64,000 bases of DNA from an uncultured bacterium (GCA_963759865.1 CAVXAV010000002.1:184384-248383), one strand, 5' to 3'. Shown: positions 4,897 through 60,414, numbered from the stretch's first letter. Made by a program: numbers and translations. Notes: generated from the sequence alone by a model not told the origin.

Positions 4897-7317
4897 ATGG
4901 AGTATATAAAATTTTTTAATGAGCTGAGCCAATCTGATATGGCTCTTGTAGGGGCCAAAAATGCCTCACTGGGCCAGATGATTCAACAGCTCCAAGATGT
5001 GGGTATTAAAATTCCGTTGGGATTTGCTATCACGGTTAAGGGGTACTGGCATCACCTTGAGCATAATCACCTTATCCCTGAAATGAAAAAAATTATAGAA
5101 ACTCTCAATTCTACAAGAAACATCGCCACTATTCAGCTGGCAGGTAAAAAATTGCGAGATCTTATCTATCATGCCCCGATGCCAGATGATCTTGCTCTTG
5201 CCATTACAAACGCCTATGTACATTTGTCAAAAATATACGACACTACAGAATTGGATGTTGCTATTCGTTCCTCCGCTACAGCAGAAGATTTGCCTAATGC
5301 ATCCTTTGCTGGCCAACAAGAAACTTATTTAAATATTAAGGGAATTGATGCGGTTCTTGACGCCACCAAAAAATGTATGGCATCACTTTTTACCGATCGT
5401 GCTATTGTCTATCGTATAGAGCAACATTTTGATCATTTTCAGGTGGCAATCTCTGTCGGGGTGCAAAAAATGGTTCGTTCTGATAAAGCAAGTTCCGGCG
5501 TCACTTTTTCGCTTGATACCGATACCGGATTTAAAAACATCGTCGTTATAACCTCATCCTATGGATTGGGGGAAAATATCGTCAAAGGAGTCGTTAATCC
5601 GGACGAATTTCATGTATTTAAACCGACTCTGGCCCAAGGATATAAACCAATAATAAAAAAATATTTGGGAAGTAAGGAATTACGATTAGTTTACACCGAT
5701 AATAAACGAGATCCGCTGGAAAATCTTCCCGTAAGTCGCAGCGACCAACAGCGATTTTCGCTAAACGATGATGAAATTTTAGAGCTTGCACGGCAAACAA
5801 GTGCTATTGAAGATCATTATAGTACATTGGCCCAAGCCTGGTGCCCTATGGATGTAGAATGGGCCAAGGATGGTATCGATAACACTCTTTATATAGTTCA
5901 AGCACGGCCAGAAACGGTGTATAGCCAACGAAAGCGACAAGAAGTGCTCATCCATTATACACTTAAAGAAGATTGCTCTAAGATCACTACTCTTACTACT
6001 GGTTTAAGTATTGGCCAAAAAATAGCATCCGGTCGTGTCAGGATTTTGAAAAGTATTCATGAACATAAGGATTTTCATCAAGGGGATATCCTGGTGACTC
6101 CTATGACCGACCCCGATTGGGTACCGCTTATGAAAAAAGCTGCGGCCATAATTACAAATAAGGGCGGTAGAACATGCCATGCTGCTATCGTAAGCAGGGA
6201 GCTTGGTATCCCGGCTATCATTGGTACAGGTAATGCAACCGATGTTATACCCGATAGCTCTCTTATCACCGTCGATTGCAGCCGAGGGGCCACAGGATAC
6301 GTGTACCAAGGAACACTTCCATTTGAAATCATTAAGACGGAATTAACTACCCTTCCTACCCCGCGCGTTCCAATCCTTCTTAATATTGCTGATCCAGACC
6401 GGGCCTATAAGCTTTCATTTCTTCCAGTAGCTGGCGTCGGTCTTGCTCGCCTTGAATTTATCATTTCGAATTTTATCAAAGTTCACCCCATGGCCGTATG
6501 CAACATGGAAAAGATCAAAGATCCTTTGGTAAAGAAGGTAATCGAAGATCGAGCTTTTGCCTATGGCGATCCTCTTAGCTTTTATCAAGATGTGTTGGCT
6601 CAGGGAATAGGTCTCATCGCGGCCGCCTTTTACCCTAGGGAAGTTATTGTTCGCCTTTCTGATTTTAAAAGTAATGAATATCGTAATCTTCTTGCGGGTG
6701 AAGACTTTGAGCCTATTGAGGAAAATCCCATGATTGGATTTCGGGGTGCCGTTCGTTATTGTGATCCTGCTTACGCACCTGCCTTCGCTCTTGAATGTGA
6801 GGCTATTAAAAAAGTGCGAAATATCATGGGTCTTACTAACGTTAAGCTCATGATTCCTTTCGTACGTAACCTCTACGAAGCGAGCTGCACGGTAGCCGCA
6901 CTTGCACAGCACGGCTTAAAACGGGGTGAAAATGGATTACAGATTCTTATGATGTGCGAAGTTCCTTCAAATGTTATTTTGCTTGAAGAATTCAGTCCCT
7001 TCTTCGATGGTTTTTCTATTGGGTCGAATGATCTTACTCAGCTGACTCTCGCGGTTGACCGTGATTCTGAATTATTAAGCCGAAGATTTAATGAAACAGA
7101 TCCAGCAGTGAAGAAAATGTTTGAAATGGCATTGGATGCCGCAAAAAAAACCAATGCGTATATGAGCATCTGTGGTGAAGCACCATCCGATTTTCCTGAA
7201 ATTGCTGACTTTTTAATAGCTCATGGTATTGACGCACTTTCACTCAATCCTGATTCGGTTATCCCCTTCCTTCTGCGCGAAGGGCAAGCAGGCTTCCTTT
7301 TTGGCCAGGAAACGTGA
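4897..7317 (+). CDS. ppsA: Phosphoenolpyruvate synthase (pyruvate, water dikinase)
   Basis: 806 aa. It has an N-terminal ATP-grasp PPDK domain, the phosphohistidine swivel motif GGRTCHAAIVSRELGIPA and a C-terminal PEP-utilising domain (GFSIGSNDLTQL). Confidence 0.9.
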   Translation: MEYIKFFNELSQSDMALVGAKNASLGQMIQQLQDVGIKIPLGFAITVKGYWHHLEHNHLIPEMKKIIETLNSTRNIATIQLAGKKLRDLIYHAPMPDDLALAITNAYVHLSKIYDTTELDVAIRSSATAEDLPNASFAGQQETYLNIKGIDAVLDATKKCMASLFTDRAIVYRIEQHFDHFQVAISVGVQKMVRSDKASSGVTFSLDTDTGFKNIVVITSSYGLGENIVKGVVNPDEFHVFKPTLAQGYKPIIKKYLGSKELRLVYTDNKRDPLENLPVSRSDQQRFSLNDDEILELARQTSAIEDHYSTLAQAWCPMDVEWAKDGIDNTLYIVQARPETVYSQRKRQEVLIHYTLKEDCSKITTLTTGLSIGQKIASGRVRILKSIHEHKDFHQGDILVTPMTDPDWVPLMKKAAAIITNKGGRTCHAAIVSRELGIPAIIGTGNATDVIPDSSLITVDCSRGATGYVYQGTLPFEIIKTELTTLPTPRVPILLNIADPDRAYKLSFLPVAGVGLARLEFIISNFIKVHPMAVCNMEKIKDPLVKKVIEDRAFAYGDPLSFYQDVLAQGIGLIAAAFYPREVIVRLSDFKSNEYRNLLAGEDFEPIEENPMIGFRGAVRYCDPAYAPAFALECEAIKKVRNIMGLTNVKLMIPFVRNLYEASCTVAALAQHGLKRGENGLQILMMCEVPSNVILLEEFSPFFDGFSIGSNDLTQLTLAVDRDSELLSRRFNETDPAVKKMFEMALDAAKKTNAYMSICGEAPSDFPEIADFLIAHGIDALSLNPDSVIPFLLREGQAGFLFGQET

Positions 7318-27004: not shown

Positions 27005-27217
27005 ACTTTCCCTTTTTTTTGAAAAAAAATATCTTTTATTATTAATAATATTACTATAATTATTTTCAGATTGCAATGGACTGGCGTGTGTATTTCTAGA
27101 TGAAAACAACCTCATTTCTTTCTGGGGCCTACCCTTCACCGAAGTGCCTTAAGCAATTATGCGTATTTCTTTGGGCGCCTTCGGCGATAGAGTTTTTTAA
27201 AATAAATTATTGCTGGG

Positions 27218-27289
27218 GCCTACGCGGCCAGCGGCAGGACCCTTTCTGGTCCTGCACCTGACCAAGGGGTAAACCCCTTTGGAAACCCC
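27218..27289 (+). repeat. GC-rich structured repeat, copy 1 (left arm of composite element)
   Basis: GCCTACGCGGCCAGCGGCAGGACC-CTTTCT-GGTCCTGCACCTGACCAAGGGG-TAAA-CCCCTTTGGAAACCCC. It is homologous in inverted orientation to 27491-27567 and 50404-50475. Confidence 0.75.
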
Positions 27290-27490
27290 AAGTTCAAACC
27301 TAAAATTCTATTTTTTGCAAAATGGCCGTGGGTCGCTATAAATTGCAAACTTGTCATTGGCACTTTAGTAAAAAATCGATAGAACTGGGTAAATCTAGAA
27401 GTCATTTATGGCTCGCCCTGTATGTGAGGCCATCGCAGTGGTGGAGTGGCTGTGCCACGTAACCCGGAGATCGGCCGAATTGGCGAGCCG

Positions 27491-27567
27491 GGGGATCCAA
27501 GGGGCCAAGGCCCCTGGCCTGGGGTGCAGGGATGTCAGGCTGCATCCCTGCCGCTTGCCGCGTAGGC
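27491..27567 (-). repeat. GC-rich structured repeat, copy 2 (right arm, inverted)
   Basis: Plus strand reads GGGGATCCAAGGGGCCAAGGCCCCTGGCCTGGGGTGCAGGGATGTCAGGCTGCATCCCTGCCGCTTGCCGCGTAGGC. It shares conserved blocks with copies 1 and 3. Confidence 0.75.
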
Positions 27568-27630
27568 AATTTTCTAATATCATTTCTTTACAGGAACCTA
27601 TACAGAAAAACACTTCTCTTCCAAGACCCC

Positions 27631-28170
27631 ATGCAACAGCTACTTATCTATACAAAAAAAAGAACTCTTATCCTACAGGCCTTAGCAGCCCTCCTGTTTG
27701 TTATTTTCTCCCTAGCAGTCGGTTTAGAGATCATTCCGGTAAAAAATGTCCTGATAAAAAATTTCATGGTTTTTATTTCTCTCCCCTTTTTCTCCCTCTG
27801 TTTTCTGGCTGGTCTTTATTACCTTATCTATCCCCAGGCAATGGTTATAATTGATGAAAAAGGAATATCGAACAATCTCATGGGCGCTGTCCATTTCATT
27901 GCATGGGATGAAATTGAGGAGATAATCATTTACAACATGAGAAATCAAAAATGGGTGGGCATCGTTGCAGTGAATTATGAACAGATCTACAACCGTCAGT
28001 CATCGCTGAAAAAGTGGTGGGTTAACCTGAATAGCACCTTCGTGCAGCCCTTTACAAAAAAACTACCCGTTATGAATGTACCTGAAACTCTCTTACCCTG
28101 CTCTGCTCTAGAGTTTACCAGCTTAGTAGAAAGCTATAAAATCCATTCAAAATCAGCTCAAGGCTTATAA
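27631..28170 (+). CDS. Hypothetical membrane protein (2 N-terminal TM helices)
   Basis: ORF 27532..28170. Its 5' part lies inside the GC-rich repeat, so the start was moved to ATG 27631 (MQQLLIYTKKRTLILQALAALLFVIF). Confidence 0.55.
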   Translation: MQQLLIYTKKRTLILQALAALLFVIFSLAVGLEIIPVKNVLIKNFMVFISLPFFSLCFLAGLYYLIYPQAMVIIDEKGISNNLMGAVHFIAWDEIEEIIIYNMRNQKWVGIVAVNYEQIYNRQSSLKKWWVNLNSTFVQPFTKKLPVMNVPETLLPCSALEFTSLVESYKIHSKSAQGL

Positions 28171-32631: not shown

Positions 32632-35370
32632 ATGTCAACACTTTTTTTTAGGAAAAAAATGTCTGATGCATTGGTGCTTCTAATCGACATATTGAGCAGC
32701 AAACAGCTGCCTTTGTGCATTGAGCTTTTATCATTTTTTTGTAAGTTGCTTATTGTTTTAACCTGCATTCATTTTACTTTTAAGATCACCTCGCATAAGC
32801 TCCCGTTGGTATTCCTTATAATTTTTCTTACCTGCTCATTCTTAAATGATGCCGTCAATATAATTTATACTGTAAAACGAGGAATCCTCCATATCAGTGA
32901 AGATTTTGCCTGGTTTACTTTTTTGATGCGCTTTGTATGGGGATTGAATCTAAGTCAGTACCAGTCGCTCGCCTTATTCATCGAAACATTCATGTTAAAG
33001 AGGGTACATTTTAAATGGACTTATATAATACATGCGCTTTTTAATGTAAGCATCTCGTCAATTTTCATGTACTTAGCATTTTTTAAATATGGAATACCAG
33101 GCGCAAATCCTGAAACTCTCAAATTGGAACTCGGACTCATACACACCATATACATATATCTTCCTGTACTTTTTATGCCAGTATTTTACAAAATTTTCAA
33201 ACACAATACAGGCTATCTTGTAATGCCGCGAATTCTAACTCATCAACTACGATCCTTAACCAATTTTGTGGTTCCCTATCTCTTTTTTGATATGCTTGGC
33301 AATTGCTCTACAACGCTCTTTCCACAAATAAAATCCTTCCAATTCCTCTTTTTCACGCTGAGCAACATCCTTAGCACTTTCCCCTTGTTTTTTGTAGGAA
33401 GAAGAATGTTGGGATTGCGATTTTTAAATTTAAGGCAAGATGTACAATCCAAGGAAAAATTCAACTTTCTTTCACAATTTAAAGATATTCTCGAACAATT
33501 GAGTTATGCAACGGCATTAAAAGAACTAGCACACCTCAATCAAACATTTTTCCAGGTTGCTTTTAATATCCCCCTTGGCAGAACGAGGCTGTATATAAGG
33601 AAAACAGAACCAGAAAAAGATGAGCATGGATATTATGATATTGCTCATATCAGCTCCAAAGTCGAAAATTTCATCAGCAAAGCTGATAATCGCGCTTTAT
33701 TCATGCTTAACTCTGCAAAAATATTTATCCGCGATGAGATAGATTTTTCGCATTATTATAATGATGAGCAGGTAAGCAAAGAAATTCTTGATTTTCTTGA
33801 TATCATAAATGCTGATATCTTCTTGCCAATCTATGAGCGAAATTCAATTATTGCCTATATTATTATCGAACGCGACGCAAGGCCTGAAAAGCTTTATACC
33901 AATAAAGAGCGGGATGAGATGCTTGTATTTACCAGCTATCTAAGCAATATCATCAATATATTGAAATATAGCAATATTGAGGCCATGCATCACAGGCACA
34001 AAGAACTTACAGAGGAATTATATCATAAGCATCGAGAAATAAATCAATATAAAGAAAGCATCCGCTTTTTCTTACGTTCAAATAAAGAACGAAAAATTGG
34101 CATTCTCTTTTATAAGCATAGGCGATTTACCTTTGCAAACGAAGCAGCACAAGAGCTTGTTGGCATGGATCTTAATACAAATATGGGCCATCTGCTTACC
34201 CAAGCATTTAAAACGGTAGCACGCCGTGTGCAAGAATTTAAAACAGCCCAAACAACGTTTGCTCACGACAGCGATGGAAACAGGATCATTATCGCAGGCA
34301 TTCCAAGCCTAGAGGAGTATACCACGATCATGCTCATCTATTATCCAGAAATCTCTGATATAATTAAATCCCAATTTGACCAACTTAAAGACCCATCAAG
34401 TTGGGATTATGTACTCTATTTAGAAACAACCCAATCTGGCCAGCTTATCAACCAACTCATACCAGGATCGGGTGAAAAGATCCTTAATTTTAAAGTTCAT
34501 CTCCTTTCATCAGCTCTTTCTAAAAAGGCAACACTTATTGACATGCCTGAAAATGATCTACTCCCTACCGTTGAAATACTGCATCATATAAGCTTACGAC
34601 AGACGCTTCACTGCATTAAATTAACAGGACCTGAAAAGAACGACGAGGTTGCGCTTAAATTATTTGGCATCAATCCATTGCTCCAAAAAGACGCACCGGA
34701 ACCCCTTCTTGCCAAATTAAACGATGTGGGGACCCTTTTTATTGAAAATATTGAGTACTTAAGCCTTGAAGCACAAGACTATCTTGCAGAATTCATTCTC
34801 TATGGATTCTTTTATAAATTCAAAAGTGACCATAAGGTATTTAGCAATGTACGCATCATCTGCTCGACAACTAAGGACCTTTTGGAATTAGTAAACGAAG
34901 GAAAATTTTCAAAGACTTTGCATAACGAACTCAAAAAGATGTCACTTACACTTCCTTCACTTTCAAGCTTTTCTGAATCTGAAATCAATGAACTGGCTCA
35001 AGGCTTTGCAGAACAGCTCGAGACAACCCAAACGTATAAGAACTTACTTGCATTAACAGAGAGAGATAAGCATAAATTAAGCTCCGATAGGCCTTTAAGC
35101 TTACAAGAATTTAAAGAAAAAATTCATCAACTCCTTGTACAAAAATCAACAAAGCACAAAATTCATGAAACAACCAATTTCGATCCTGCCTACAATGTCA
35201 CAGAACCCGATATTGCTCACGCAGTCCGTTTAGGCAAAAAAGCCCTTAAGGACCCACAGATCATGGCTATGCTCTGGAAAAAATTTAAAAACCAAAATAA
35301 GATTGCCACCCTTCTTGGTGTTAATCGCTCATCCGTGAACAGACGTTGTCAAGAGTATGACCTGCACTAA
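32632..35370 (+). CDS. Membrane-anchored GAF-PAS regulator with degenerate sigma54-activator AAA+ module and Fis-type HTH (paralog 1)
   Basis: 912 aa. About 270 aa of N-terminal polytopic TM region is followed by a GAF-like region (ADIFLPIYERNSIIAYIIIERDA) and a PAS-like region (IGILFYKHRRFTFANEAAQELVGMD). The EBP-like core reads GTLFIENIEYLSLEAQDYL and VRIICSTTKDLLELVNEGKF. The C-terminal HTH reads KIATLLGVNRSSVNRRCQEY. Confidence 0.75.
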   Translation: MSTLFFRKKMSDALVLLIDILSSKQLPLCIELLSFFCKLLIVLTCIHFTFKITSHKLPLVFLIIFLTCSFLNDAVNIIYTVKRGILHISEDFAWFTFLMRFVWGLNLSQYQSLALFIETFMLKRVHFKWTYIIHALFNVSISSIFMYLAFFKYGIPGANPETLKLELGLIHTIYIYLPVLFMPVFYKIFKHNTGYLVMPRILTHQLRSLTNFVVPYLFFDMLGNCSTTLFPQIKSFQFLFFTLSNILSTFPLFFVGRRMLGLRFLNLRQDVQSKEKFNFLSQFKDILEQLSYATALKELAHLNQTFFQVAFNIPLGRTRLYIRKTEPEKDEHGYYDIAHISSKVENFISKADNRALFMLNSAKIFIRDEIDFSHYYNDEQVSKEILDFLDIINADIFLPIYERNSIIAYIIIERDARPEKLYTNKERDEMLVFTSYLSNIINILKYSNIEAMHHRHKELTEELYHKHREINQYKESIRFFLRSNKERKIGILFYKHRRFTFANEAAQELVGMDLNTNMGHLLTQAFKTVARRVQEFKTAQTTFAHDSDGNRIIIAGIPSLEEYTTIMLIYYPEISDIIKSQFDQLKDPSSWDYVLYLETTQSGQLINQLIPGSGEKILNFKVHLLSSALSKKATLIDMPENDLLPTVEILHHISLRQTLHCIKLTGPEKNDEVALKLFGINPLLQKDAPEPLLAKLNDVGTLFIENIEYLSLEAQDYLAEFILYGFFYKFKSDHKVFSNVRIICSTTKDLLELVNEGKFSKTLHNELKKMSLTLPSLSSFSESEINELAQGFAEQLETTQTYKNLLALTERDKHKLSSDRPLSLQEFKEKIHQLLVQKSTKHKIHETTNFDPAYNVTEPDIAHAVRLGKKALKDPQIMAMLWKKFKNQNKIATLLGVNRSSVNRRCQEYDLH

Positions 35371-35471: not shown

Positions 35472-38177
35472 ATGTCATACGTACTAGACTTTTTGCATGC
35501 CTTAATAAGGAGTAAGAAGCTTTTTTTGAGCATTGAACTTTTATCCTTGTTTTGTAAATTATTCATCTTGCTCACGTGCATACGTTTTATTTTTAAAACG
35601 GCAACTCAACGGGCACTCATTTTTGTCTTGATGACATTTCTTTCCCTCTCCTTATTGACCGACTGTGCTAACATTATATATACAGTCAAACGGGGAATCT
35701 TTGGTATCACTCAAGACTTTCCTTTATTTTCTTTCTTTCTAAGAGTTGTATGGGGCCTTGCAGTCACCCAGTATCAAGCTATTGCCCTCTTTTTGATGGC
35801 TCTGATGCGTAAGAAAATAGAATGGAAGCACTGGTACATTCCTCATATTCTCGTTAATGCTGGGATCTCTTCTATCTTTATGTACCATGCGTTTTTTAAA
35901 TATGGTGTTTCAGGAGCAAGCCCTGAGACCTTGCCCCGAGAACTTGCACTTATACATACTATCTACCTCTATACGCCATTTCTTTTTATACCGATATTTT
36001 ACAAAATCTTTAAAAAAAGAAACCCTAATGAGCATATCCCCCGTATCCTTACGCATCAGCTGCGATCTCTTTCCTATTTTTTTATCCCCTATCTTATCTG
36101 TGAAACGCTCAGCAATTGTGCTGGCATCCCTGCGAGCTTCACATTCTCTTGTCTAAAATCATGGGAATACTTATTTTTCACCCTCAGCTCACTTTTAAGT
36201 ACGTACCCGCTATTTTTAGTGGGCAAAAGAATCCTTGGGTTGCGCTTTTTGAACTTGCGTAGAGATGTTGAATCTAAAGAAAAATTTAATTTTCTTGCTC
36301 GGTTTAAAGAAATCCTCGATCAATTAAATTATGCGACAGCTTTGAAAGAGCTAGCGCAGCTCAATCAAACATTTTTCCATACGGCCTTTGCAGTCCCCTT
36401 GGGTAGAACAAAGCTTTATTTTAGAAAAACAGACACTCAGATTCCTTATTATGATAGTCAGATAGGCGCCACAGTGGAATCCTTTCTAGAACAACGCGAA
36501 GCTCGATCGTTAGCAACTCTTCACAGTCTAAAAATTTTTATTCGAGATGAGATTGCTTTTAACAATTTCTATGAAAATGACCCAATTCACGAAGAAATTC
36601 TCGCTTTCATGGATGCTATCAATGCAGACATTTTTCTACCAATCTACGAACGTACAACCATCATTGGCTACAGCATAATCGAGCGCAATGCTCGCCCTGA
36701 TAAGCTTTTTACAAATAAAGAACGGGATGAGATGCTCGTGTTTACCAGCTATTTGGGCAATATTACTACCATCTTAAAATACAGTACGCTTGAAACAATG
36801 TGGCAAAGGCATAAAGAGCTTACCGATGAGCTTTACCACAAGCATCAAGAAATTAATCAATACAAAGAAGCACTACGCTTTTTCCTCCGTTCAGGCAATG
36901 ACCGCAAAATCGGGATTGTTTTTTTCAAACAACGACACTTTAGCTTCGCAAATCAAGCGGCTAAAGAACTGGTGGGTATGGATCTTAATACCCAGGCAGG
37001 TCATACGGTAAGCCGTACCTTTAAAACCGTAGCTCACCATGTACAGGAATATAAAACTGCCTATACGCTCTCGGCGCATGATAGCAAAGGCAACCGCATC
37101 ATCATAGCAGGTGTTCCCAGCCTGGAAGATTCGACCGTGATTTTACTCGTGTATTATCCAGAAGTATCTGATATTATTAAAGCCCAATTTGATCAACTGA
37201 AAGATCCTTCCGCTTGGGACTATGTTCTCTATCTTGAAACAACACAATCGGGGCAGCTTATCAACAGGCTCATAGCCGGTTCATCCGAAAAAATTCTCTC
37301 GTTTAAGATTGATCTGCTTTCAACAGCACTTTCAAAAAAAGCAACATTGCTTGATATGCCTCCTGAAGATACTGCAGCAACTGTTGAAATTCTGCATCAT
37401 ATTAGCTTGAGACAAACACTCCAGTGCATGACCCTCACAGGGCCTGAGAAAAATAATGAAATAGCGGTCATTCTCTTTGGGCTCAACCCCCTTCTTGAAA
37501 AAGATAGCCAGTCGCTTCTTAAAAAATTGCATGATGTGGGAACACTCTTTATTGAAAACATCGAATATCTTAGCCTTGAAACACAAAATGCACTTGCACA
37601 CTTCATTTCCTCTGGCTATTTTTACCTATTTAAAAGCGATATTAAAGTGTTTAGCAATGTACGCATTATTTGTTCAACCACAAAAAATCTCTCTACGCTC
37701 GTACACGAAGGAACCTTTTCGCATAGTCTCTATACCGAGCTTAAAAAAACCTCTTTAGCGTTCCCCTCACTCCAAAGCTTTTCAGAATCTGAACTACACG
37801 AACTTGCTCAAGGCTTTGCAGAGCAAATTGAAACAAGTCAGACGTATAAAAGTTTGCTTGCTCTCACACAAAGAGATAAGCTCACCTTGCAAAACGATCG
37901 TCCTTTAAGCTTAAAAGAACTTAAGGAAGCCGTTCACCACTTGCTCGTTGAAAAATCTACCAAACATAACATCAGTGAAATAGTATTAGATCCCGCGTAT
38001 GATGTCGCTGAGCCTGATATAGCACATGCCGTACGGCTTGGGAAAAAAGCACTTAAGGACCCTCAAATAATGACACTCCTCTGGAATAAGTTCAAAAACC
38101 AAAATAAAATTGCTCTCCTGCTTGGATGCAACCGTTCGTCGGTCAATCGTAGATGCCAAGAATATAATCTCAAATGA
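35472..38177 (+). CDS. Membrane-anchored GAF-PAS regulator with degenerate sigma54-activator AAA+ module and Fis-type HTH (paralog 2)
   Basis: 901 aa, collinear with paralog 1 throughout with the same degenerate motifs (GTLFIENIEYLSLETQNAL, VRIICSTTKNLSTLVHEGTF, KIALLLGCNRSSVNRRCQEY). Confidence 0.75.
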   Translation: MSYVLDFLHALIRSKKLFLSIELLSLFCKLFILLTCIRFIFKTATQRALIFVLMTFLSLSLLTDCANIIYTVKRGIFGITQDFPLFSFFLRVVWGLAVTQYQAIALFLMALMRKKIEWKHWYIPHILVNAGISSIFMYHAFFKYGVSGASPETLPRELALIHTIYLYTPFLFIPIFYKIFKKRNPNEHIPRILTHQLRSLSYFFIPYLICETLSNCAGIPASFTFSCLKSWEYLFFTLSSLLSTYPLFLVGKRILGLRFLNLRRDVESKEKFNFLARFKEILDQLNYATALKELAQLNQTFFHTAFAVPLGRTKLYFRKTDTQIPYYDSQIGATVESFLEQREARSLATLHSLKIFIRDEIAFNNFYENDPIHEEILAFMDAINADIFLPIYERTTIIGYSIIERNARPDKLFTNKERDEMLVFTSYLGNITTILKYSTLETMWQRHKELTDELYHKHQEINQYKEALRFFLRSGNDRKIGIVFFKQRHFSFANQAAKELVGMDLNTQAGHTVSRTFKTVAHHVQEYKTAYTLSAHDSKGNRIIIAGVPSLEDSTVILLVYYPEVSDIIKAQFDQLKDPSAWDYVLYLETTQSGQLINRLIAGSSEKILSFKIDLLSTALSKKATLLDMPPEDTAATVEILHHISLRQTLQCMTLTGPEKNNEIAVILFGLNPLLEKDSQSLLKKLHDVGTLFIENIEYLSLETQNALAHFISSGYFYLFKSDIKVFSNVRIICSTTKNLSTLVHEGTFSHSLYTELKKTSLAFPSLQSFSESELHELAQGFAEQIETSQTYKSLLALTQRDKLTLQNDRPLSLKELKEAVHHLLVEKSTKHNISEIVLDPAYDVAEPDIAHAVRLGKKALKDPQIMTLLWNKFKNQNKIALLLGCNRSSVNRRCQEYNLK

Positions 38178-46829: not shown

Positions 46830-47978
46830 ATGAAAAATCTCTCATTAACAATACTTTTATTGCTATCGACCCCCTGGCTGAGCGCAATGGAGGTACTGCC
46901 CCTTGCAAAGACCGGACCAGAAACAAAGCAAAAACTTGACCCCGACAAACTGATCGTGAAACAAGATACCGAGTTGACTAAGGAGCAGGTAGAGAACTTA
47001 GATATTGACAGATTTCACTACACACATCTTATGCTTTTGTCGGATAAAACCGCCGAGTTATTTACTACTTCATTTAGAAGCAACAACGAACTATATAAAA
47101 GGCTTGGAAGTGAAAAGAAGCTGGAAGAGCAAGCACCAAGGCTTGAGCTTGAAAAGCAACTAAAGGCAGTACAAGAAGAACTGAAGGCTGCCAAAGAAGC
47201 TCTTGAACAAACAAAAAATTTACAGAAACTTGAAACAGAGCAAAATAAAAGACTTCAAGAGCAAAATAAAAGACTCGATGAACTTGAAAAGCAAAATAAA
47301 GGACTTCAAGAACTTGAAGAGCAAAATAAAAGACTTCAAGAAAAAATAAATAAAAAAAATAAAAATGAAAATAAGAGTTCTGTTTTTGGAGATTTTTATG
47401 AGGAATCCTATAATAAGGAATCCTATACCGTTGAACCCCTTCGACTCCTAGGTGCCCTAGATGAGTCGGACATCGAAGTTCTTACGAAAGCAAAAGAGAA
47501 GCTAGACGCTGAACTACTGACAGACACCAAAGTGGTCACCCCAGAGATCTTTGACAAAAAAGCTGAAGCTGCATTGAAGAAAGAAGTTTCTGAAAAGTTT
47601 ATAAATGAAACCATTAAGTATAGAGTAAATCAGGCTAAAGAGCAATTTAAGTCTATACAAAATGTGGCTGATCTCGATAATTTAAAGATTCAAGAGGGTC
47701 TAGCAAAACAAATAGAACAACTTGAAAATGAAATCGATGCCATTGAGAAAAAATTATACGCAAAGAATGCTCAAGCAGAGACTCACAAGTATGACGTTGC
47801 TATTCTTGAGCAGTTGAAGAAAAAGGTTACTCTTCAGGCTAAATTGGACGCATTACCTGAATTAGATAAGAATAAGAAATTATTCTGGGCAAATGTTTAC
47901 AAACACTTTGCAGCTCGAAAGAAAGCTCTAGAAGAAGCTCAGAAGAAAACTACACAACCGGAAACACAGACCAAGTAA
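46830..47978 (+). CDS. Secreted coiled-coil protein with QNKRLQE-type repeats
   Basis: Signal peptide (MKNLSLTILLLLSTPWLSA) followed by long heptad-like charged sequence. Nucleotide repeats of GAGCAAAATAAAAGACTTCAAGA lie at about 47230-47345. Confidence 0.65.
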   Translation: MKNLSLTILLLLSTPWLSAMEVLPLAKTGPETKQKLDPDKLIVKQDTELTKEQVENLDIDRFHYTHLMLLSDKTAELFTTSFRSNNELYKRLGSEKKLEEQAPRLELEKQLKAVQEELKAAKEALEQTKNLQKLETEQNKRLQEQNKRLDELEKQNKGLQELEEQNKRLQEKINKKNKNENKSSVFGDFYEESYNKESYTVEPLRLLGALDESDIEVLTKAKEKLDAELLTDTKVVTPEIFDKKAEAALKKEVSEKFINETIKYRVNQAKEQFKSIQNVADLDNLKIQEGLAKQIEQLENEIDAIEKKLYAKNAQAETHKYDVAILEQLKKKVTLQAKLDALPELDKNKKLFWANVYKHFAARKKALEEAQKKTTQPETQTK

Positions 47979-50403: not shown

Positions 50404-50475
50404 GGGGGTCCAGGGGTGCTCCCCGGCGCAGGTGAAGGACTGCGCGCAGCGGTCCTTCCGCTCGGCGCGTAGCCG
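50404..50475 (-). repeat. GC-rich structured repeat, copy 3 (solo)
   Basis: Plus strand reads GGGGGTCCAGGGGTGCTCCCCGGCGCAGGTGAAGGACTGCGCGCAGCGGTCCTTCCGCTCGGCGCGTAGCCG. It aligns block by block with 27491-27567 and lies 29 nt from the 3' end of tRNA-Ala. Confidence 0.7.
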
Positions 50476-50504
50476 CTTAAATTTCGCGTAGCCGTCTTAG
50501 TTAC

Positions 50505-50580
50505 TGGTGGAGTTGACGGGAGTCGAACCCGTGACCTCATGAATGCCATCCATGCGCTCTGCCAGCTGAGCTACAACCCC
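50505..50580 (-). tRNA. tRNA-Ala (anticodon GGC), CCA encoded
   Basis: Minus strand reads GGGGTTGTAGCTCAGCTGGCAGAGCG-CATGG-ATGGCAT-TCATG...GGTTCGACTCC...CAACTCCACCA. The G3:U70 alanine identity pair is present. Confidence 0.9.
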
Positions 50581-52927: not shown

Positions 52928-54259
52928 TTACTCTGTTATCTTTGTACCTTTTTTAACAATGAACTTCACGGGTACACCAATCATATCATACTCGGAACGT
53001 AAAAGATTTTCAAAAAAAGTTAGTTGCGATTCGCCAAACCACTCTGGTTCATTTACCCGTAGTTCCAAAGTAATCGGAGCTGCTTTAACCTGTCTAACCT
53101 TATATAAACGCAATAAACGAGTTTTGTTATATAATGGTTTCTTAAAAAGGGCCCCCATAAAAAGCTTAGTAAGTTCTGCATCATCAAAATGCTGATTATA
53201 ACGTTGCCATACTTCCTGTATAAGAGGCATGACCTTCCCGACATTTTTACCCGTCTTACAAGAAATCTGTAAGACGGCTATCTTTTTAATAAGGAACTCA
53301 TAGTACTCAAAGCTTCTTTCCAAATCTTGTCTGCTTACATCGTTAATCAAATCCTGCTTATTAATGAGTAAAATCAGTGCCTTATAGTGCTTTGCAAAAG
53401 CATAAAAAGCCAACTTCAGCTCCTGATCTACTAACTCATGAGAACTGCCATCTATTAAAAGGACCACAATATCTGACTTTTTTAATGCTTGAAAAGCACT
53501 TTTAACCATGAGCGGCTCGAGTTCACCCGACACGGCCCGCTTTCTTCGTATACCCGGGGTATCGGTAAGTTCGATCGCTTCCTTATAAAACATGATTTGC
53601 TCCGAGACTGCTTCCCTTGTTGTACCGGGAATTTCAGACACAAGTGCCCGCTCTTCTTTTAAAAGAGCATTCATGAGCGATGATTTTCCTACGTTAGGCT
53701 TTCCCAAAAGCATCACCCGAAAGACCGGAGCCGTTTCAACCGGATGGCCAGACTTTTCTGGAAGTGCTTCAATAATGGCATCAAGCACATCTTCAATTCC
53801 TCGTGCATGGGCTGCAGAAATCGGTATCATGTGCGCAAAGCCTAAGCGTTCAAACTCATAGTGCTCTTCTTGCGCTCTTTTACTGTCCATTTTATTAATG
53901 ACCAGAATAACTGGTTTATTCATTTTATGCAGATATGAAGCGATTTCACGATCTTCTGGGATAATCCCTGTGGTACCATCTACCATAAAAATGAGAACAT
54001 CTGCCTTTTCTATAAGATCTAGAACTTTTTTACGCACCGCTTGCAAAAGTTCATCGTGAGATTTGCGTAGATGGATCCCGCCACTATCGATGAGATCAAA
54101 CCGTTTGCCTTTCCAATCAATTTCTTCTTTAATAAAGTCCCTTGTTACACCCTCATAATCAAGTGTTATGCTTTTCACATCTTTGCTTATGCTATTAAAA
54201 AGAGTTGACTTGCCGACGTTCATACGCCCCACAATTACTACTGATCCTGCCGCCTTCAT
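52928..54259 (-). CDS. der: GTPase Der (EngA)
   Basis: Two tandem G domains (GRMNVGKSTLFN and GKPNVGKSSLMN; DTPG, NKxD) plus a KH-like C-terminus. The start forms an ATGA overlap with the dnaX stop (54256-54259). Confidence 0.9.
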   Translation of the reverse strand: MKAAGSVVIVGRMNVGKSTLFNSISKDVKSITLDYEGVTRDFIKEEIDWKGKRFDLIDSGGIHLRKSHDELLQAVRKKVLDLIEKADVLIFMVDGTTGIIPEDREIASYLHKMNKPVILVINKMDSKRAQEEHYEFERLGFAHMIPISAAHARGIEDVLDAIIEALPEKSGHPVETAPVFRVMLLGKPNVGKSSLMNALLKEERALVSEIPGTTREAVSEQIMFYKEAIELTDTPGIRRKRAVSGELEPLMVKSAFQALKKSDIVVLLIDGSSHELVDQELKLAFYAFAKHYKALILLINKQDLINDVSRQDLERSFEYYEFLIKKIAVLQISCKTGKNVGKVMPLIQEVWQRYNQHFDDAELTKLFMGALFKKPLYNKTRLLRLYKVRQVKAAPITLELRVNEPEWFGESQLTFFENLLRSEYDMIGVPVKFIVKKGTKITE

Positions 54260-55944
54260 ACCCCCTCACTTTCGGGGTTTTCCTGACTGACGCTTAATGT
54301 TCCGGGAAATACACGCAATAAAGCATGTGCTTTTTGCCATTTTTCCGTATCAGTAATAGTAACAACCTTCTGCGCAGCAATACGCTCTTTTTTACTAGGC
54401 AGGGGAGTATTTTGGGGCACAGGCCTACCAGGCAATTTGACTGGCTCGACTGCTTTAGGTACACGCTCTTTAGCTGGTCCGGTAAAATGAGGCACCAGTT
54501 CTACCCCCGGGGAAAAAAAGCGATTAATTATCGGTTGCCACACTTTTTGCGTATTAACAAGCCATTCTTTAAAAAAAAGAAGGTCCTGAGAAAATGTAAC
54601 TTCTAGACGCTTATTTTGTGCATCGCAGGCATGCGGAACACCTTGTTTAAAAATAGATACTACTAAGGGATCATGTAATTTTTCAATCTCTTGCAGGCAG
54701 GAATCCCAGGCTGAAACAGCTTTACTTTCTTGATCGACGGCAGCTACAGCTCTTTGCTCAGCCTTGTTTATGAGATCTGGCGCACTCTCCTGTATTGGGC
54801 TTGTGCGACGAGTCTCATCCCTGCTCTCTCGGGCCGCCCGTGGATTTTTTGGTTGCTCATTTTGTGCCATCTTTAAAAGCATCATTTCGAGCATGCATTC
54901 CGGAGTTGCTGTTTTAGCAAATGCCAATTCATACTCATAGCATAGTTCAAATAAGCGCAATAACTGATCAAGAGAACAATTTTTCGTTATCTCCCTTAAA
55001 ACATGCGTAGAAGTACCCTCTTGAGGATCAACTCCATTTTTTACCCATAAAGAGAGACGAATAAGCTCAACAAAGCTTTTCCAAACAAGAGTAGGAGCAT
55101 AATTCTTGAGATTCATCTGGTGTATTGTCCCTAAAACATCAGCACCTGATCCATACAGCACAACGCGTAAAAGCTCACATAAGCGTTCATCATCAATCTT
55201 TCCAAGGAGCTCGATTACACTTGTTTGGGTAATGGATGGATAAGCAATCCGCACACGTTCAACAAGATTTAATGCATCGCGCATTGATCCTTCTGTTTCC
55301 TGAGCTATAAGAATAAGCGCTTCTTTTTCAAAAGGGATAGCTTCAGCTAAGCAAATCCGCGCAAGGTGCTCAACAACCTCACATGATTCAATAGGCTCGA
55401 AAAAGAGCTGAAAGCAGCGTGATGTAACAGTTTCTAATATTTTATGTGGATCGGTTGTCGCCAATAAAAACACAACGGAAAGAGGCGGCTCTTCAAGTAT
55501 TTTTAAAAAGGCGTTAAAAGCTGCCTTACTGAGCATATGAGCTTCATCAATAAGATAAATCTTTTTGCTGCCCAACACTGGAACAAATGCAGAGGCATCA
55601 ATAATGGCACGAACGTTATCAACACCCGTGTGAGATGCCGCATCAATTTCTATAAAATCAGGATGCTTTGATACCTGCATTGCTCGACATGATGCACACA
55701 CCAAACAAGGTATTTGCTGATTTTGTGGATTTTTTTGAAATTGTTCTAAAGCTTGGCAATTAAGAGCTGCTGCAAATATCCTACCAATGCTCGTTTTACC
55801 ACACCCGCGGGTTCCTGACAAGAGGTACACAGGAAAAATAAGATTGCGATAGAGGCTATTTTTAACCAGCCTCACCACTAACTGTTGGCCTACAATTTCA
55901 TCAAAATGCTGTGATCGCCATTTACGGGCAAGATTAAGATGCAT
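54256..55944 (-). CDS. dnaX: DNA polymerase III subunit gamma/tau
   Basis: LLSGTRGCGKTS Walker A, the Zn module CLVCASCRAM, IYLIDEAHML, and the sensor region TSRCF. Length is 562 aa. Confidence 0.9.
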   Translation of the reverse strand: MHLNLARKWRSQHFDEIVGQQLVVRLVKNSLYRNLIFPVYLLSGTRGCGKTSIGRIFAAALNCQALEQFQKNPQNQQIPCLVCASCRAMQVSKHPDFIEIDAASHTGVDNVRAIIDASAFVPVLGSKKIYLIDEAHMLSKAAFNAFLKILEEPPLSVVFLLATTDPHKILETVTSRCFQLFFEPIESCEVVEHLARICLAEAIPFEKEALILIAQETEGSMRDALNLVERVRIAYPSITQTSVIELLGKIDDERLCELLRVVLYGSGADVLGTIHQMNLKNYAPTLVWKSFVELIRLSLWVKNGVDPQEGTSTHVLREITKNCSLDQLLRLFELCYEYELAFAKTATPECMLEMMLLKMAQNEQPKNPRAARESRDETRRTSPIQESAPDLINKAEQRAVAAVDQESKAVSAWDSCLQEIEKLHDPLVVSIFKQGVPHACDAQNKRLEVTFSQDLLFFKEWLVNTQKVWQPIINRFFSPGVELVPHFTGPAKERVPKAVEPVKLPGRPVPQNTPLPSKKERIAAQKVVTITDTEKWQKAHALLRVFPGTLSVSQENPESEGV

Positions 55945-55974
55945 GGGATGCGCTCCTTACATCGTATGTATTAA

Positions 55975-56055
55975 GGAAGCTTATACAGAACATCGCTACT
56001 CGTGCTGCTTCCTTTCAGACCTGACACAGTAAGCATCTAGTTCTTATAAGCTTCC
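55975..56055 (-). ncRNA. ffs: Signal recognition particle RNA (small 4.5S type)
   Basis: Minus strand reads GGAAGCTTATAAGAAC...GTGTCAGGTCTGAAAGGAAGCAGCAC...GTTCTGTATAAGCTTCC. The helix-8 core matches the conserved GUCAGGUCCGGAAGGAAGCAGC with a GAAA tetraloop. The 5' and 3' ends pair over about 16 bp. It lies directly upstream of dnaX. Confidence 0.8.
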
Positions 56056-56071
56056 AACTTTTAGGTCATTT

Positions 56072-56163
56072 TGGTGGAGAGAGAGGGATTCGAACCCTCG
56101 ATACCCTTTTCAGGATATACGTGATTTCCAATCACGCTCTTTCGGCCACTCAGACACCTCTCC
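56072..56163 (-). tRNA. tRNA-Ser (anticodon GGA), long variable arm, CCA encoded
   Basis: Minus strand reads GGAGAGGTGTCTGAGTGGCCGAAAGAGC-GTGAT-TGGAAAT-CACGT...variable arm...GGTTCGAATCC...CTCTCCACCA. Confidence 0.9.
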
Positions 56164-56654: not shown

Positions 56655-57134
56655 CTACGGCACCGACAGGCCAGCTGAGAGTACGGATCCCCCCGACAAT
56701 ATTATTAAGCGCCCTACGCGCTTTTTAAGCGTGTTTAATTCTTTCTTATTATAAGGAAATTGCTCCGACTTTGTTAAAATATCTTCGTAATGAAGCATAT
56801 TAGCAATAGCTTTACGCACTTGACGGAAATTACTAAACGTACCCCCTACCCATCTATGCATAACATACGGAAGATTCAATTCCTTAGCCACTTTTGCAAC
56901 CGCTTCTTGAGCAGCTTTTTTTGTGCCTACAATCAGAATAGTCCGCCCATCAGCAGCAACCGACTCTAAAAACTTTGAAGCTTGTTCCAATTGATGCGCT
57001 GTTTTGGAAACATCAATTAAATGAATATCATTTTTGTAACCCCAAATATAAGGCTCCATCTTAGGACACCAGCGGGACGTTTGATGGCCAAAATGCACAC
57101 CATTCTTAATAAGTAAACGCAAATCTACTGACAT
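56655..57134 (-). CDS. rpsB: 30S ribosomal protein S2, N-terminal fragment (gene interrupted by a 1-nt frameshift)
   Basis: [32 protein letters not shown]...ILIVGTKKAAQEAV matches S2. Homology ends at ...KKELNTLKK, after which the frame reads nonsense to a stop. Confidence 0.85.
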   Translation of the reverse strand: MSVDLRLLIKNGVHFGHQTSRWCPKMEPYIWGYKNDIHLIDVSKTAHQLEQASKFLESVAADGRTILIVGTKKAAQEAVAKVAKELNLPYVMHRWVGGTFSNFRQVRKAIANMLHYEDILTKSEQFPYNKKELNTLKKRVGRLIILSGGSVLSAGLSVP

Positions 57135-57385
57135 AGGATACTCTTTCGCAGGGTTATAACAATTATTTCCCGGCTTGATTTGTAAAAATCATCAACCACC
57201 CTGTAGTAAGGGAAATAAGTGACTAGAAATAAAAACCATACATATATGTGTTCTATAGTATAGCAAAACAGGCCAAAAAAGCAAAAAAAGCAAGCAACTG
57301 TCTTATCTGAATAGAAGGCTTACAAATTCCATTAAAAAAATACCCTCTTGACCATTGACTTTCATCTCAAAACCGAGCTAAAATC

Positions 57386-57545: not shown

Positions 57546-57595
57546 TTAACTTACTTCAAGAATATCTCAGCAAGTCAACTGAATTAAGCAAAAAA

Positions 57596-58225
57596 ACTCT
57601 CACTGGCCATACCAAAATGGTCTATTCTGCTCAATTCAATAGTCAAGGCACACAGGTAGTGACTGCTTCTTACGATAAAACGGCCAAAATCTGGGATGCC
57701 AACTCCGGACTGCTTCTTAAAACCCTCGCTGGCCATACCAACATGGTCTTTTCTGCTCAATTCAATAGTCAAGGCACACAGGTAGTGACTGCTTCTTACG
57801 ATAAAACGGCCAAAATCTGGGATGCCAATACCGGACTGCTTCTCAAAACTCTTACTGGCCATACCAATTGGGTCATTTCTGCTCAATTCAATAGTCAAGG
57901 CACTCAGGTAGTGACTGCTTCTAGCGATAACACCGCCAAAATCTGGGATGCCAATACCGGATTGCTTCTTAAAACCCTCACTGGCCACACCCGTGCAGTC
58001 AATTCTGCCCAATTTAATAGTCAAGGCACACAGGTAGTGACTGCTTCTAGCGATAAGACTGCCATAATCTGGGATGCCAACTCCGGCCAGCTTCTTAACA
58101 CTCTCACTGGCCATACTAAGATGGTCCGGTCTGCTCAATTTAATCCCCAAGGAACACAGATTGTAACTGCTTCTAGCGATAACACCGCCAAAATCTGGCC
58201 TGCGCCGGTTCCAGAACTTATGCGC
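57596..58225 (+). repeat. Tandem 126-bp repeat array (5 units) encoding the WD40 blades
   Basis: Units start at 57596, 57722, 57848, 57974 and 58100, with long identical nucleotide runs (for example CAATTCAATAGTCAAGGCACACAGGTAGTGACTGCTTCT). Confidence 0.9.
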
Positions 58226-58261
58226 CTTGTAGAAGATGAAACTCCAAAACAAGCCTCCTGA
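57617..58261 (+). CDS. WD40-repeat protein, main fragment (5 near-identical blades)
   Basis: Five repeats of the consensus TLTGHTxxVxSAQFNSQGTQVVTASxDxTAKIWDAxxGxLLx. In-frame sequence upstream (from 57467) encodes FHFLPRDLINLLQEYLSKS, an F-box-like LPxxL..LL..YL motif. Confidence 0.8.
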   Translation: MVYSAQFNSQGTQVVTASYDKTAKIWDANSGLLLKTLAGHTNMVFSAQFNSQGTQVVTASYDKTAKIWDANTGLLLKTLTGHTNWVISAQFNSQGTQVVTASSDNTAKIWDANTGLLLKTLTGHTRAVNSAQFNSQGTQVVTASSDKTAIIWDANSGQLLNTLTGHTKMVRSAQFNPQGTQIVTASSDNTAKIWPAPVPELMRLVEDETPKQAS

Positions 58262-59255: not shown

Positions 59256-60165
59256 TAGGAGCATAGTTATTAAGGTTCATCTGGTGCATTGTCCCTAAAA
59301 CATCCGCACCTGATCCATACAGCACAACGCGTAAAAGCTCACATAAGCGTTCATCATCAATCTTTCCAAAAAGCTCGATTACACTTGTTCGGGTAATGGA
59401 TGGATAAGCAATCCGCACACGTTCAACAAGATTTAATGCATCGCGCATTGATCCTTCTGTTTCCTGAGCTATAAGAATAAGCGCTTCTTTTTCAAAAGGG
59501 ATAGCTTCAGCTGAGCAAATCCGAGCAAGGTGCTCAACAACCTCACCTGATTCAATAGGCGAGAAAAAGAGCTGAAAGCAGCGTGAGGTAACGGTTTCTA
59601 ATATTTTATGGGGATCGGTTGTCGCTAATAAAAACACAACGGAAAGAGGCGGCACTTCAAGTATTTTTAAAAAGGCGTTAAAGCTGCCTTACTGAGCATA
59701 TGAGCTTCATCTATAAGATAAATCTTTTTGCTGCCCAACACCGGAACAAATGCAGAGGCATCAATAATGGCACGAACGTTATCAACGCCCGTGTGAGATG
59801 CCGCATCAATTTCTATAAAATCAGGATGTTTTGCTGCCTGCATTGCTTGACATGATGCACACATCAAACAAGGTATTTGCTGATTTTGTGGATTTTTTTG
59901 AAATTGTTCTATAGCTTGGCAATTAAGAGCTGCTGCAAATATCCTACCAATGCTCGTTTTACCACAACCGCCAGTTCCTGATAAGAGGTACACAGGAAAA
60001 ATTAGATTGCGATAGAGGCTATTCTTAACCAGCCTCACCACTAATTGTTGGCCTACAATAATCTTTGTAACCCCAAATGTAAGGCTCCATCTTAGGACAC
60101 CAGCGGGATGTTTGATGGCCAAAATGCACGCCATTCTTAATAAGTAAACGCAAATCTACTGACAT
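59230..60165 (-). pseudogene. Chimeric remnant: rpsB codons 1 to ~34 fused out of frame to dnaX codons ~17-279, itself frameshifted
   Basis: ORFs 59667..60134 and 59230..59655 reproduce DnaX residues IVGQQLVV...HMLSKAA and PPLSVVFLLATT...MNLNNYAP with scattered substitutions. ORF 60025..60288 contains [34 protein letters not shown], the S2 N-terminus. Confidence 0.85.
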
Positions 60166-60414
60166 AGGATACTCTTTCGCAGGGTTATAACAATTATTTC
60201 CCGGCTTGATTTGTAAAAAATCATCAGCCACCCTGTAGTAAGGGAAATAAGTGACCAGAAATACGTACTCTACAGTATAGCAAAACATGCCAAAAAGGCA
60301 AAAAACGTACCCCTACTTTTATAAGAGATTTGGGAAAATTTTCGATACTTGATGTTTTGATTACAGCAAAAAAATAGTATACTTTTTGAACAATACATAG
60401 CTTGCGAAAGTATT

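Follow-up and report, generated by a model that had tools for sequence, protein, structure and literature searches.

The stretch of DNA analysed here, referred to as the window, is 64,000 nucleotides long and comes from an uncultured bacterium (GCA_963759865.1 CAVXAV010000002.1:184384-248383). At 27218-27567 it carries a structured element lying inside a 625-bp divergent intergenic region. The limits of this region are 27005 and 27629, because an ankyrin gene starts at 27004, as judged by homology with a syntenic relative, and the ATG at 27630 is the most likely start of the downstream open reading frame (ORF). The ORFs listed within the element are mutually overlapping and most plausibly spurious, in agreement with an earlier note on this DNA that had called the interval non-coding. 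The interval is a heads-outward inverted pair of a ~75-nt multi-hairpin module, and in our reading the family of this module is probably a non-autonomous mobile DNA of the type of repetitive extragenic palindromic (REP) sequences, REP doublets forming hairpins (REPINs) and miniature inverted-repeat transposable elements (MITEs). About 120 bp of AT-rich DNA lie between the two copies, and the right copy has an extra third hairpin. A covariance model of the two outermost hairpins, hp0 and hp1, was built from the module alignment and run on the window with filters off; it gave three matches, both arms of the element and 50427-50480(-), with E-values that are rough. The features are as follows.

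27214-27289, + strand: left module (model match 27212-27262, 54.7 bits, E=1e-10; DNA fold; alignment with other modules)
27217-27229, + strand: left hp0, GGCC-TACGC-GGCC
27234-27255, + strand: left hp1, GCAGGACC-CTTTCT-GGTCCTGC, then ACCTGA
27262-27282, + strand: left hp2, CCAAGGGG-TAAA-CCCCTTTGG, then AAACCCC up to 27289
27290-27409, strand not applicable: AT-rich interior, 0.34 GC, unique in the window (composition and repeat comparison)
27410-27489, strand not applicable: hp3 or 'core', an 80-nt irregular GC-rich hairpin at the third-hairpin position of the right module
27490-27569, - strand: right module (model match 27519-27573(-), 54.4 bits, E=1.3e-10; fold; alignment)
27490-27494, - strand: right C-run
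27497-27517, - strand: right hp2, CCAGGGGCC-TT-GGCCCCTTGG
27526-27551, - strand: right hp1, GCAGGGATG/CATCCCTGC, then ACCCC
27555-27569, - strand: right hp0, TTGCC-TACGC-GGCAA
27116-27141, + strand: decayed module fragment, 5' flank plus first half of hp0 (TTCTTTCTGGGGCCTAC) joined to CCTTCACC
50404-50476, - strand: third, solo module (model match 50427-50480(-), 31.1 bits, E=2.4e-5)

Read from the outside inwards, the ~75-nt module consists of hp0, the dinucleotide GC, hp1, ACCYG, hp2 and a run of C. The hp0 hairpin has 4-5 bp, with a GCC/GGC stem core and the loop T(A/G)CGC, which is TACGC in both window arms; hp1 is closed by GCAGG/CCTGC, and hp2 has the form xxGGGG-loop-CCCCxx. The arm sequences given in the earlier note are exact and stand where it placed them, and the outer 21 nt (27218-27238 and 27547-27567) are 95% complementary, as it had described for inverted arms. 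Its internal hairpin with compensatory changes is hp1, whose variable tip differs in sequence between the arms (GCAGGACC/GGTCCTGC versus GCAGGGATG/CATCCCTGC) yet remains paired. The 24-nt head pattern occurs twice in the window and in none of 100 window shuffles. The same note had called the whole interval far more GC-rich than its surroundings, which is correct for the arms and the 27410-27489 hairpin (0.54-0.68 GC) and incorrect for the interior at 27290-27409, whose GC content falls below the background of ~0.40. The two core helices it listed, GGCTCGCC at 27410-17 with GGCGAGCC at 27482-89 and GTGGC-TGT-GCCAC at 27446-58, both lie within the predicted fold, the former closing hp3, which folds with a z of only -1.6 to -1.8. 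A third hairpin stands at the same position in elements of Clostridiaceae strain 9 and MFD04492, without sequence homology to hp3. Compared with shuffles, the fold of the whole interval reaches z = -6.2 on the + strand and -7.2 on the - strand; this strength follows trivially from the inverted repeat and is no independent evidence.

The third copy in the window retains the full plan, with hp0 as CGGC-TACGC-GCCG, hp1 as GGAAGGAC..GTCCTTC followed by ACCTG, and hp2 as CCGGGG-AGCA-CCCCTGG followed by ACCCCC. Pairs in it have changed on both sides, CGGC/GCCG in hp0 and GGAAGGAC/GTCCTTC in hp1. Because this copy has its own hp2 and C-run, the module is an independent unit in the source genome. The copy lies ~30 nt 3' of a tRNA gene at 50508-50580(-), on the same strand, and has an A-run after its hairpins (on the other strand, a T-run before them). 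The possible degenerate fragment that had been pointed out upstream of the element also proved real: 15 of 17 positions (88%) agree between 27116-27132 and 27207-27223, and the former is followed by CCTTCACC, which in the third copy forms the 3' end of hp1. From its sequence, 27116-27141 tentatively looks like an internally deleted module; the covariance model gave no match there. Partial duplicates ending in ..CTAC or ..CTACGCG stand upstream of full modules at 27116-27132, at 50485-50494 (a 10-nt duplicate, CGGCTACGCG, beside the third copy) and in an array on the locus L036. Judged from these sequences, they may hint at a breakpoint in the hp0 loop, which they do not prove.

Copies outside the window were sought by scanning one genome per species for the exact 21-nt head GCCTACGCGGCNAGCGGCAGG. 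The head was the search key, and its invariance among the retrieved copies is therefore partly selected; the consensus of each lineage's divergent copies is nevertheless identical. Further copies of the ~75-nt module, which the earlier note had proposed to count, do exist: in addition to the third window copy, 51 genome loci match the head and the covariance model gave 85 matches at E<1e-4. About 40 of the 51 loci continue with the same hp1 closing pairs and ACCC, the GCAGG/CCTGC hairpin and ACCC being features outside the scan pattern. About ten come from actinobacterial or proteobacterial DNA of very high GC content and appear to be chance or coding matches. The first ~24 bases are near-identical in bacteria of several phyla (at least five), and the head consensus CGCCT(A/G)CGCGGCG(A/G)GCGGCAGGGG was found in Planctomycetota, Chloroflexota, Clostridia, metagenome-assembled genomes (MAGs) labelled Myxococcota, AT-rich MAGs and soil contigs; TACGC is replaced by TGCGC in many members of the family. 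Named by record title, the carriers are five Planctomycetota MAGs, one Phycisphaerae MAG, a Chloroflexaceae MAG, Kouleothrix, 'Clostridiaceae bacterium strain 9' (dozens of copies on 15 scaffolds), a mouse-gut Clostridia MAG, two Myxococcota-labelled MAGs, one Hyphomicrobiaceae MAG and three unclassified AT-rich MAGs with contigs of 1.3-1.5 Mb. Flanking DNA has a GC content of 0.39-0.70, matching each host, and the hp1 tips track host composition, so contamination is unlikely.

When metagenomes were scanned with a slightly relaxed head, at least 120 loci matched, about 50 of which are real copies, the majority from a soil subfamily of ~105 nt whose second hairpin differs. No match to the family was found in viral contigs (0) or in plasmids, and a phage or plasmid origin was rejected on these grounds. 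These observations establish a large family of short non-coding repeats, dispersed between genes in several phyla, for which Rfam and the literature searched yielded no name. Modules are arranged as solo copies, tandem arrays or heads-outward pairs. Tandem arrays of the head unit have periods of 39-41 nt and of 25 nt; the 25-nt array at L036 3563-3690 (CGCCTACGCGGCGAGCGATACCTAC x5) lies directly upstream of a full module, and each of its units joins hp0 to a short tail that ends with CTAC. Members in Clostridiaceae strain 9 begin with one to seven hp0-hp1 units, which are followed by hp2, hp3 and an inverted 3' end. Some copies carry inserts of 25-74 nt in the hp1 tip (L031 ~5880-5945, L041 ~480-545, L043 ~7000-7075, L119 and L153), and one of these inserts, in Clostridiaceae strain 9, is a 45-nt stem, CCAC..GTGG, around CCGCGC-ACA-GCGCGG. 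The hp1 loop looks like a hot spot of expansion or insertion. Separately, in one AT-rich MAG (L034 ~2770-2800) a GC-rich hairpin, GGGGTTCTAGGGGTATGCCCCTAGTAGAACCGGGGTG, lies apparently within the 5' end of a ferredoxin-like ORF, an arrangement reminiscent of in-frame insertions of palindromic elements.

Covariation was assessed on an alignment of 34 modules across the two head helices, in which the exact-match scan had fixed most hp0 columns and the free pairs are the informative ones. Paired cells made up 91%, compared with 83% in shuffles and 36-59% in slid registers, and the covariation score of 0.238 (0.093 in shuffles) was reached by none of 500 shuffles. The pair next to the GCC/GGC core is C-G 27 times, A-U twice, U-A twice and G-C once; in the window arms it is G-C and U-A. 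A larger, model-derived alignment contains copies in which the hp0 core GCC/GGC has become CCC/GGG and others in which the hp1 closing pair has changed from G-C to C-G. Covariation, which the earlier note had named as a check, is thus found in both head helices, and the structure is under selection. On the strand that reads GCCTAC, G.T wobbles outnumber A.C mismatches by 29 to 14, indicating that one particular strand is the folded one.

The evidence for movement comes from soil contigs. Two of them, L130 and L128, are collinear over kilobases at 82-88% identity, and in them a ~100-nt element is inverted (L130 3292-3393 corresponds to L128 3022-2925). In L130 a 157-nt element-bearing segment separates two genes, which in a third contig, L096, are joined as TGA, 11 nt, ATG. 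The inversion and the presence/absence difference together indicate that the family moves at the DNA level. The direction of a copy was shown not to depend on the genes beside it: aroF and aroB of Clostridiaceae strain 9 run the same way, and of the two elements on either side of aroB one points with these genes and the other against them. Across loci, copies occur in convergent, divergent and tandem intergenic regions. In the tandem regions the 11 same-sense copies do not significantly exceed the 4 antisense ones, the ORF calls being crude in both counts. Neighbouring ORFs encode unrelated housekeeping functions (Mur ligases, a tRNA synthetase, FtsW, DAHP synthase, RuvB and DnaA). No recurring gene family was found beside the copies by all-against-all BLASTP or by Pfam on 110 neighbouring ORFs, which returned only spurious repeat-spanning ORFs and housekeeping genes, and no Y1 transposase was among the 25 most frequent families listed for these 110 ORFs.

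At the window locus itself, positional conservation, which the earlier note had considered, was not observed. The neighbouring 256-aa protein has homologues at 45-63% identity, and several of the contigs of seven relatives keep the nth-RRM-ABC-256aa synteny. No module was detected in 49 kb of these seven syntenic relatives with the covariance model (filters off); the element is therefore not positionally conserved, the locus-level absence applying to distant relatives with 45-63% amino-acid identity. Between the 256-aa gene and the ABC genes the relatives have different genes or none, and the element sits in a variable, insertion-prone region.

The alternatives of the earlier note were a single long-stem RNA and a MITE-like element. 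The former found no support; modules occur solo, in tandem arrays and in both gene-relative orientations. The latter is supported by the dispersed copies, the covariation, the excess of heads-outward pairs and the inversion and presence/absence differences within the family, and it falls short in that neither a target-site duplication nor a parent insertion sequence was found. Several further observations weigh against mobile DNA of this type. Mobility is shown for soil members of the family and not for the window copy or its source genome. No target-site duplication is present at the window pair (flanks ..TTATTGCTGGG|GCCTAC and GTAGGC|AATTTTCT), in pairs elsewhere, or at the L130 filled and L096 empty sites. 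No transposase or REP-associated tyrosine transposase (RAYT) lies beside the copies in about 90 loci of ~8 kb each, an absence that means little since whole genomes were not covered. REP sequences are lineage-specific and RAYTs mostly inherited vertically (PMC5581495), whereas the ~24-nt head is near-invariant across phyla. Strand-specific folding fits RNA as well as single-stranded DNA, and the two window arms are of different subtypes. The left arm, with GGACC..GTCC and CACCTG, is nearer to the third copy, which shares these motifs, than to the right arm, with GGGAT..ATCCC and CACCCC.

This last point bears on whether the element is one unit. Two solo modules might have been inserted independently in opposite orientations, leaving the interior, including the 27410-27489 hairpin, as native intergenic DNA. 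The arms have no more in common than the head and the block pattern, a solo module lies in the same window, a decayed fragment stands 91 nt upstream, no repeat of the interior 27290-27409 was found elsewhere in the 64-kb window, and the region between the 256-aa and ABC genes is variable in relatives. Independent insertion, however, predicts equal numbers of the two arrangements, and among neighbouring modules less than 500 nt apart we counted 12 heads-outward (the window pair included) and 1 heads-inward, for which our own arithmetic gives a two-sided binomial probability of about 0.003. Spacer length in the pairs runs from about 35 nt (Planctomycetota) up to 100-250 nt (the window, MFD02579 and soil contigs), and pairs with such 100-250-bp interiors occur in soil contigs and recur as units in MFD02579, where the interior is conserved at four or more loci. 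Two separate events are thus a possibility worth keeping, though an unlikely one. If instead the module were a structured RNA, either a small RNA or a cis-acting mRNA element such as a stabiliser or processing signal, its head would be a site of RNA-protein or RNA-RNA contact and the repeats would be gene copies. The strong covariation of two helices, the conserved loops and head, and the G.U excess on one strand would all suit an RNA, as would an hp1 tip that tolerates large insertions in the manner of variable RNA stems. Some copies are sense within operons (L130) or lie just 3' of a same-strand tRNA gene, and hp1 has a sub-threshold similarity of 17-22 bits to the Clostridiales-2 RNA motif. 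An RNA gene is hard to reconcile with copies in both orientations relative to co-directional genes, with tandem arrays of 25-41 nt, with an orthologous copy that is inverted and another that is present or absent, and with neighbouring genes that have no common theme. Neither a promoter nor a terminator is conserved with the module (terminator-like matches number 2 against 1.1 expected), and no Rfam family claims it at threshold. We consider the RNA explanation improbable; by analogy with E. coli REPs, a secondary RNA effect alongside mobility is possible. More remote still is the idea that the repeats serve the host as protein-binding sites, or as terminators or insulators, kept by selection and not mobile. 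Their intergenic, hairpin-forming nature, their frequent position between operon genes or at gene ends and the extreme conservation of the head would agree with such a role, which we judge very improbable given the lack of a U-tract after the hairpins on either strand, the absence of the module from the orthologous locus of relatives, a copy number that varies between lineages from 0 in 49 kb to several per 8 kb, and the tandem arrays and inversions.

Under the mobile-DNA reading that we favour, the invariant head, comprising the hp0 stem GCC/GGC with its loop T-R-CGC and the GCAGG/CCTGC base of hp1, would serve a trans-acting enzyme as the site that it recognises on folded single-stranded DNA. 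This enzyme would be encoded elsewhere in the genome, and the pair would move, or would once have moved, as one unit. An HUH/Y1 transposase such as RAYT would be the first candidate, because a conserved hairpin loop, a compensatory stem and a favoured strand are features that such enzymes recognise; we regard this candidate class as doubtful. A wider proposal, made tentatively, is that the family represents an undescribed cross-phylum class of structured mobile repeats, whose near-invariant two-hairpin head would be the substrate of a candidate trans-acting partner, itself either horizontally spread or conserved very widely. The partner could be a new single-strand DNA transposase/nuclease system distinct from RAYT-REP, or an RNA-binding factor, in hosts of 40-70% GC. 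If the family is truly undescribed, a ~24-nt head kept across phyla, unlike the lineage-specific REPs, points to a shared mobilising or binding protein, and genes co-occurring with the repeat in a phylogenetic profile could reveal that partner if the proposal is true.

The element may have consequences for its surroundings. A sigma70-like, rightward promoter-like sequence in the interior (TTGCAA at 27315-27320, a 16-nt spacer and TATAAA at 27337-27342; our own reading, absent from the promoter scan listing) could possibly drive transcription of hp3 and the right module as part of the leader of the gene at ~27630. Because of this predicted read-through, the element, lying within a divergent promoter region, may incidentally affect the expression of that gene and may alter its 5' leader. 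A public gene call on a short-read contig extended ORF 27630-28170 through the right arm to the contig end (window 27403-28170; L001 3759-4526), giving a 255-aa product; this call is a spurious extension, arising because the GC-rich repeat is stop-free. Short-read contigs of the same strain terminate within the element at 27236 and 27403, breaks that fit, weakly, a repeat or a strong hairpin. In general, GC-rich modules in AT-rich genomes create spurious ORFs, break short-read assemblies and are easily mistaken for structured RNA genes.

Other repeats were observed elsewhere in the window. A 126-nt unit is repeated in tandem about five times at 57593-58222 with 79-92% identity, under the overlapping ORFs 57584-58252(-) and 57617-58261(+). 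Dispersed duplications at 87-97% identity link 55092-55800 with 59256-59963 (~4.2 kb apart) and 57027-57288 with 60058-60305 (~3.0 kb); the first duplicate copy overlaps the 5' part of dnaX (54256-55944, -), beside a signal recognition particle (SRP) RNA at 55969-56058 and a tRNA at 56075-56163, and the second copy is without these RNA genes. Tandem paralogues of ~900 aa at 32632-35370 and 35472-38177, with about 70% nucleotide identity, are by synteny the counterparts of a long protein with a sigma-54 activator domain in the relatives. At 47144-47371, within ORF 46830-47978, lie short periodic repeats, spaced at 21 and 9 nt and with many AAG/CAA codons, and their sequence suggests that this ORF may encode a coiled-coil repeat protein. 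Ten window proteins searched against NCBIfam matched nothing beyond generic Gram-negative housekeeping families.

Finally, the element was compared with known systems. Rfam at gathering scores gave no repeat match in the window, in 18 genome loci or in 20 metagenome loci, where its matches lay elsewhere and were limited to tRNAs, SRP RNA, a T-box and a tetrahydrofolate (THF) riboswitch; with gathering and E-value thresholds applied to the window, the element's locus and 40 related loci, no known family claims the element, which answers the question left by the earlier note. The best sub-threshold hits on the repeats were Clostridiales-2 (17.4 bits at the window locus) and generic miRNA-hairpin models. 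The Clostridiales-2 RNA motif (RF02937), the only bacterial Rfam model to touch the module repeatedly, shares its hairpin GGGGUGCAGGGG..CCCCUGCC with the reverse strand of hp1; membership was rejected, as the matches scored 17.4-22.2 bits against a gathering score of 58.6 and the rest of the model was unmatched. Identity with tmRNA, RNase P or 6S RNA was rejected, as no models match and no conserved motifs are visible. Integron attC sites were discarded by inspection: the ends resemble RYYYAAC/GTTRRRY minus one base, and the family also occurs in Clostridia. CRISPR was excluded by arrays of 25-41-nt period without spacers, and an intrinsic terminator by the presence of only two weak matches at the right-arm hp0 (2 versus 1.1 expected) and of the A-run after the hairpins of the third copy. 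Palindrome-associated elements derived from IS200/IS605 carry left- and right-end hairpins of like orientation on a single strand and insert 3' of a fixed tetra- or pentanucleotide; the two window modules are inverted, and the partial duplicates described above may hint at a breakpoint in the hp0 loop. A search of full-text literature for family sequence strings returned only unrelated primer matches, which is no proof that the family is undescribed.

BOX elements of Streptococcus pneumoniae are built as boxA-boxB(n)-boxC, with variable tandem internal units and complementary ends. The modular plan of the Clostridiaceae strain 9 members resembles this architecture; BOX differs in having no sequence relationship to the family and another host range, and the window copies are single-unit. 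With MITEs such as Correia/NEMIS of Neisseria, the family shares non-coding units of 100-350 bp with inverted-repeat ends, multi-copy and intergenic, insertion polymorphism between relatives (here soil family members) and the capacity to carry outward promoter-like sequences. In contrast to MITEs, the family showed no target-site duplication and, within the ~8-kb loci, no parent insertion sequence sharing its ends, and what stands for the 'inverted repeat' is a structured module of two hairpins, found also alone and in tandem arrays. REP, bacterial interspersed mosaic element (BIME) and REPIN are defined as short GC-rich extragenic hairpins and their inverted doublets with a spacer (PMC3479197; PMC3337134). 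A REP is an imperfect hairpin of 35-40 nt, preceded 5' of its foot by the conserved tetranucleotide GTAG (PMC3479197). The modules agree with these systems in being short, GC-rich, imperfect hairpins that are extragenic, dispersed, sometimes clustered and non-coding, in the inverted doublet with spacer as the typical unit (the window pair and 11 more heads-outward pairs), and in their presumed recognition as folded single strands by an enzyme encoded elsewhere. Unlike REP, the CTAC/GTAG lies inside hp0 (GCC-TACGC-GGC), the pair reads 5'-CTAC...GTAG-3' on either strand and no hairpin follows GTAG; the module has two or three different hairpins, whereas REP has one. A single-copy RAYT gene bracketed by the repeats, a further trait of REP systems, was not found in the 64 kb of the source genome and the ~8-kb loci covered. 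We class the element as working like a REPIN or a MITE without being a member of either.

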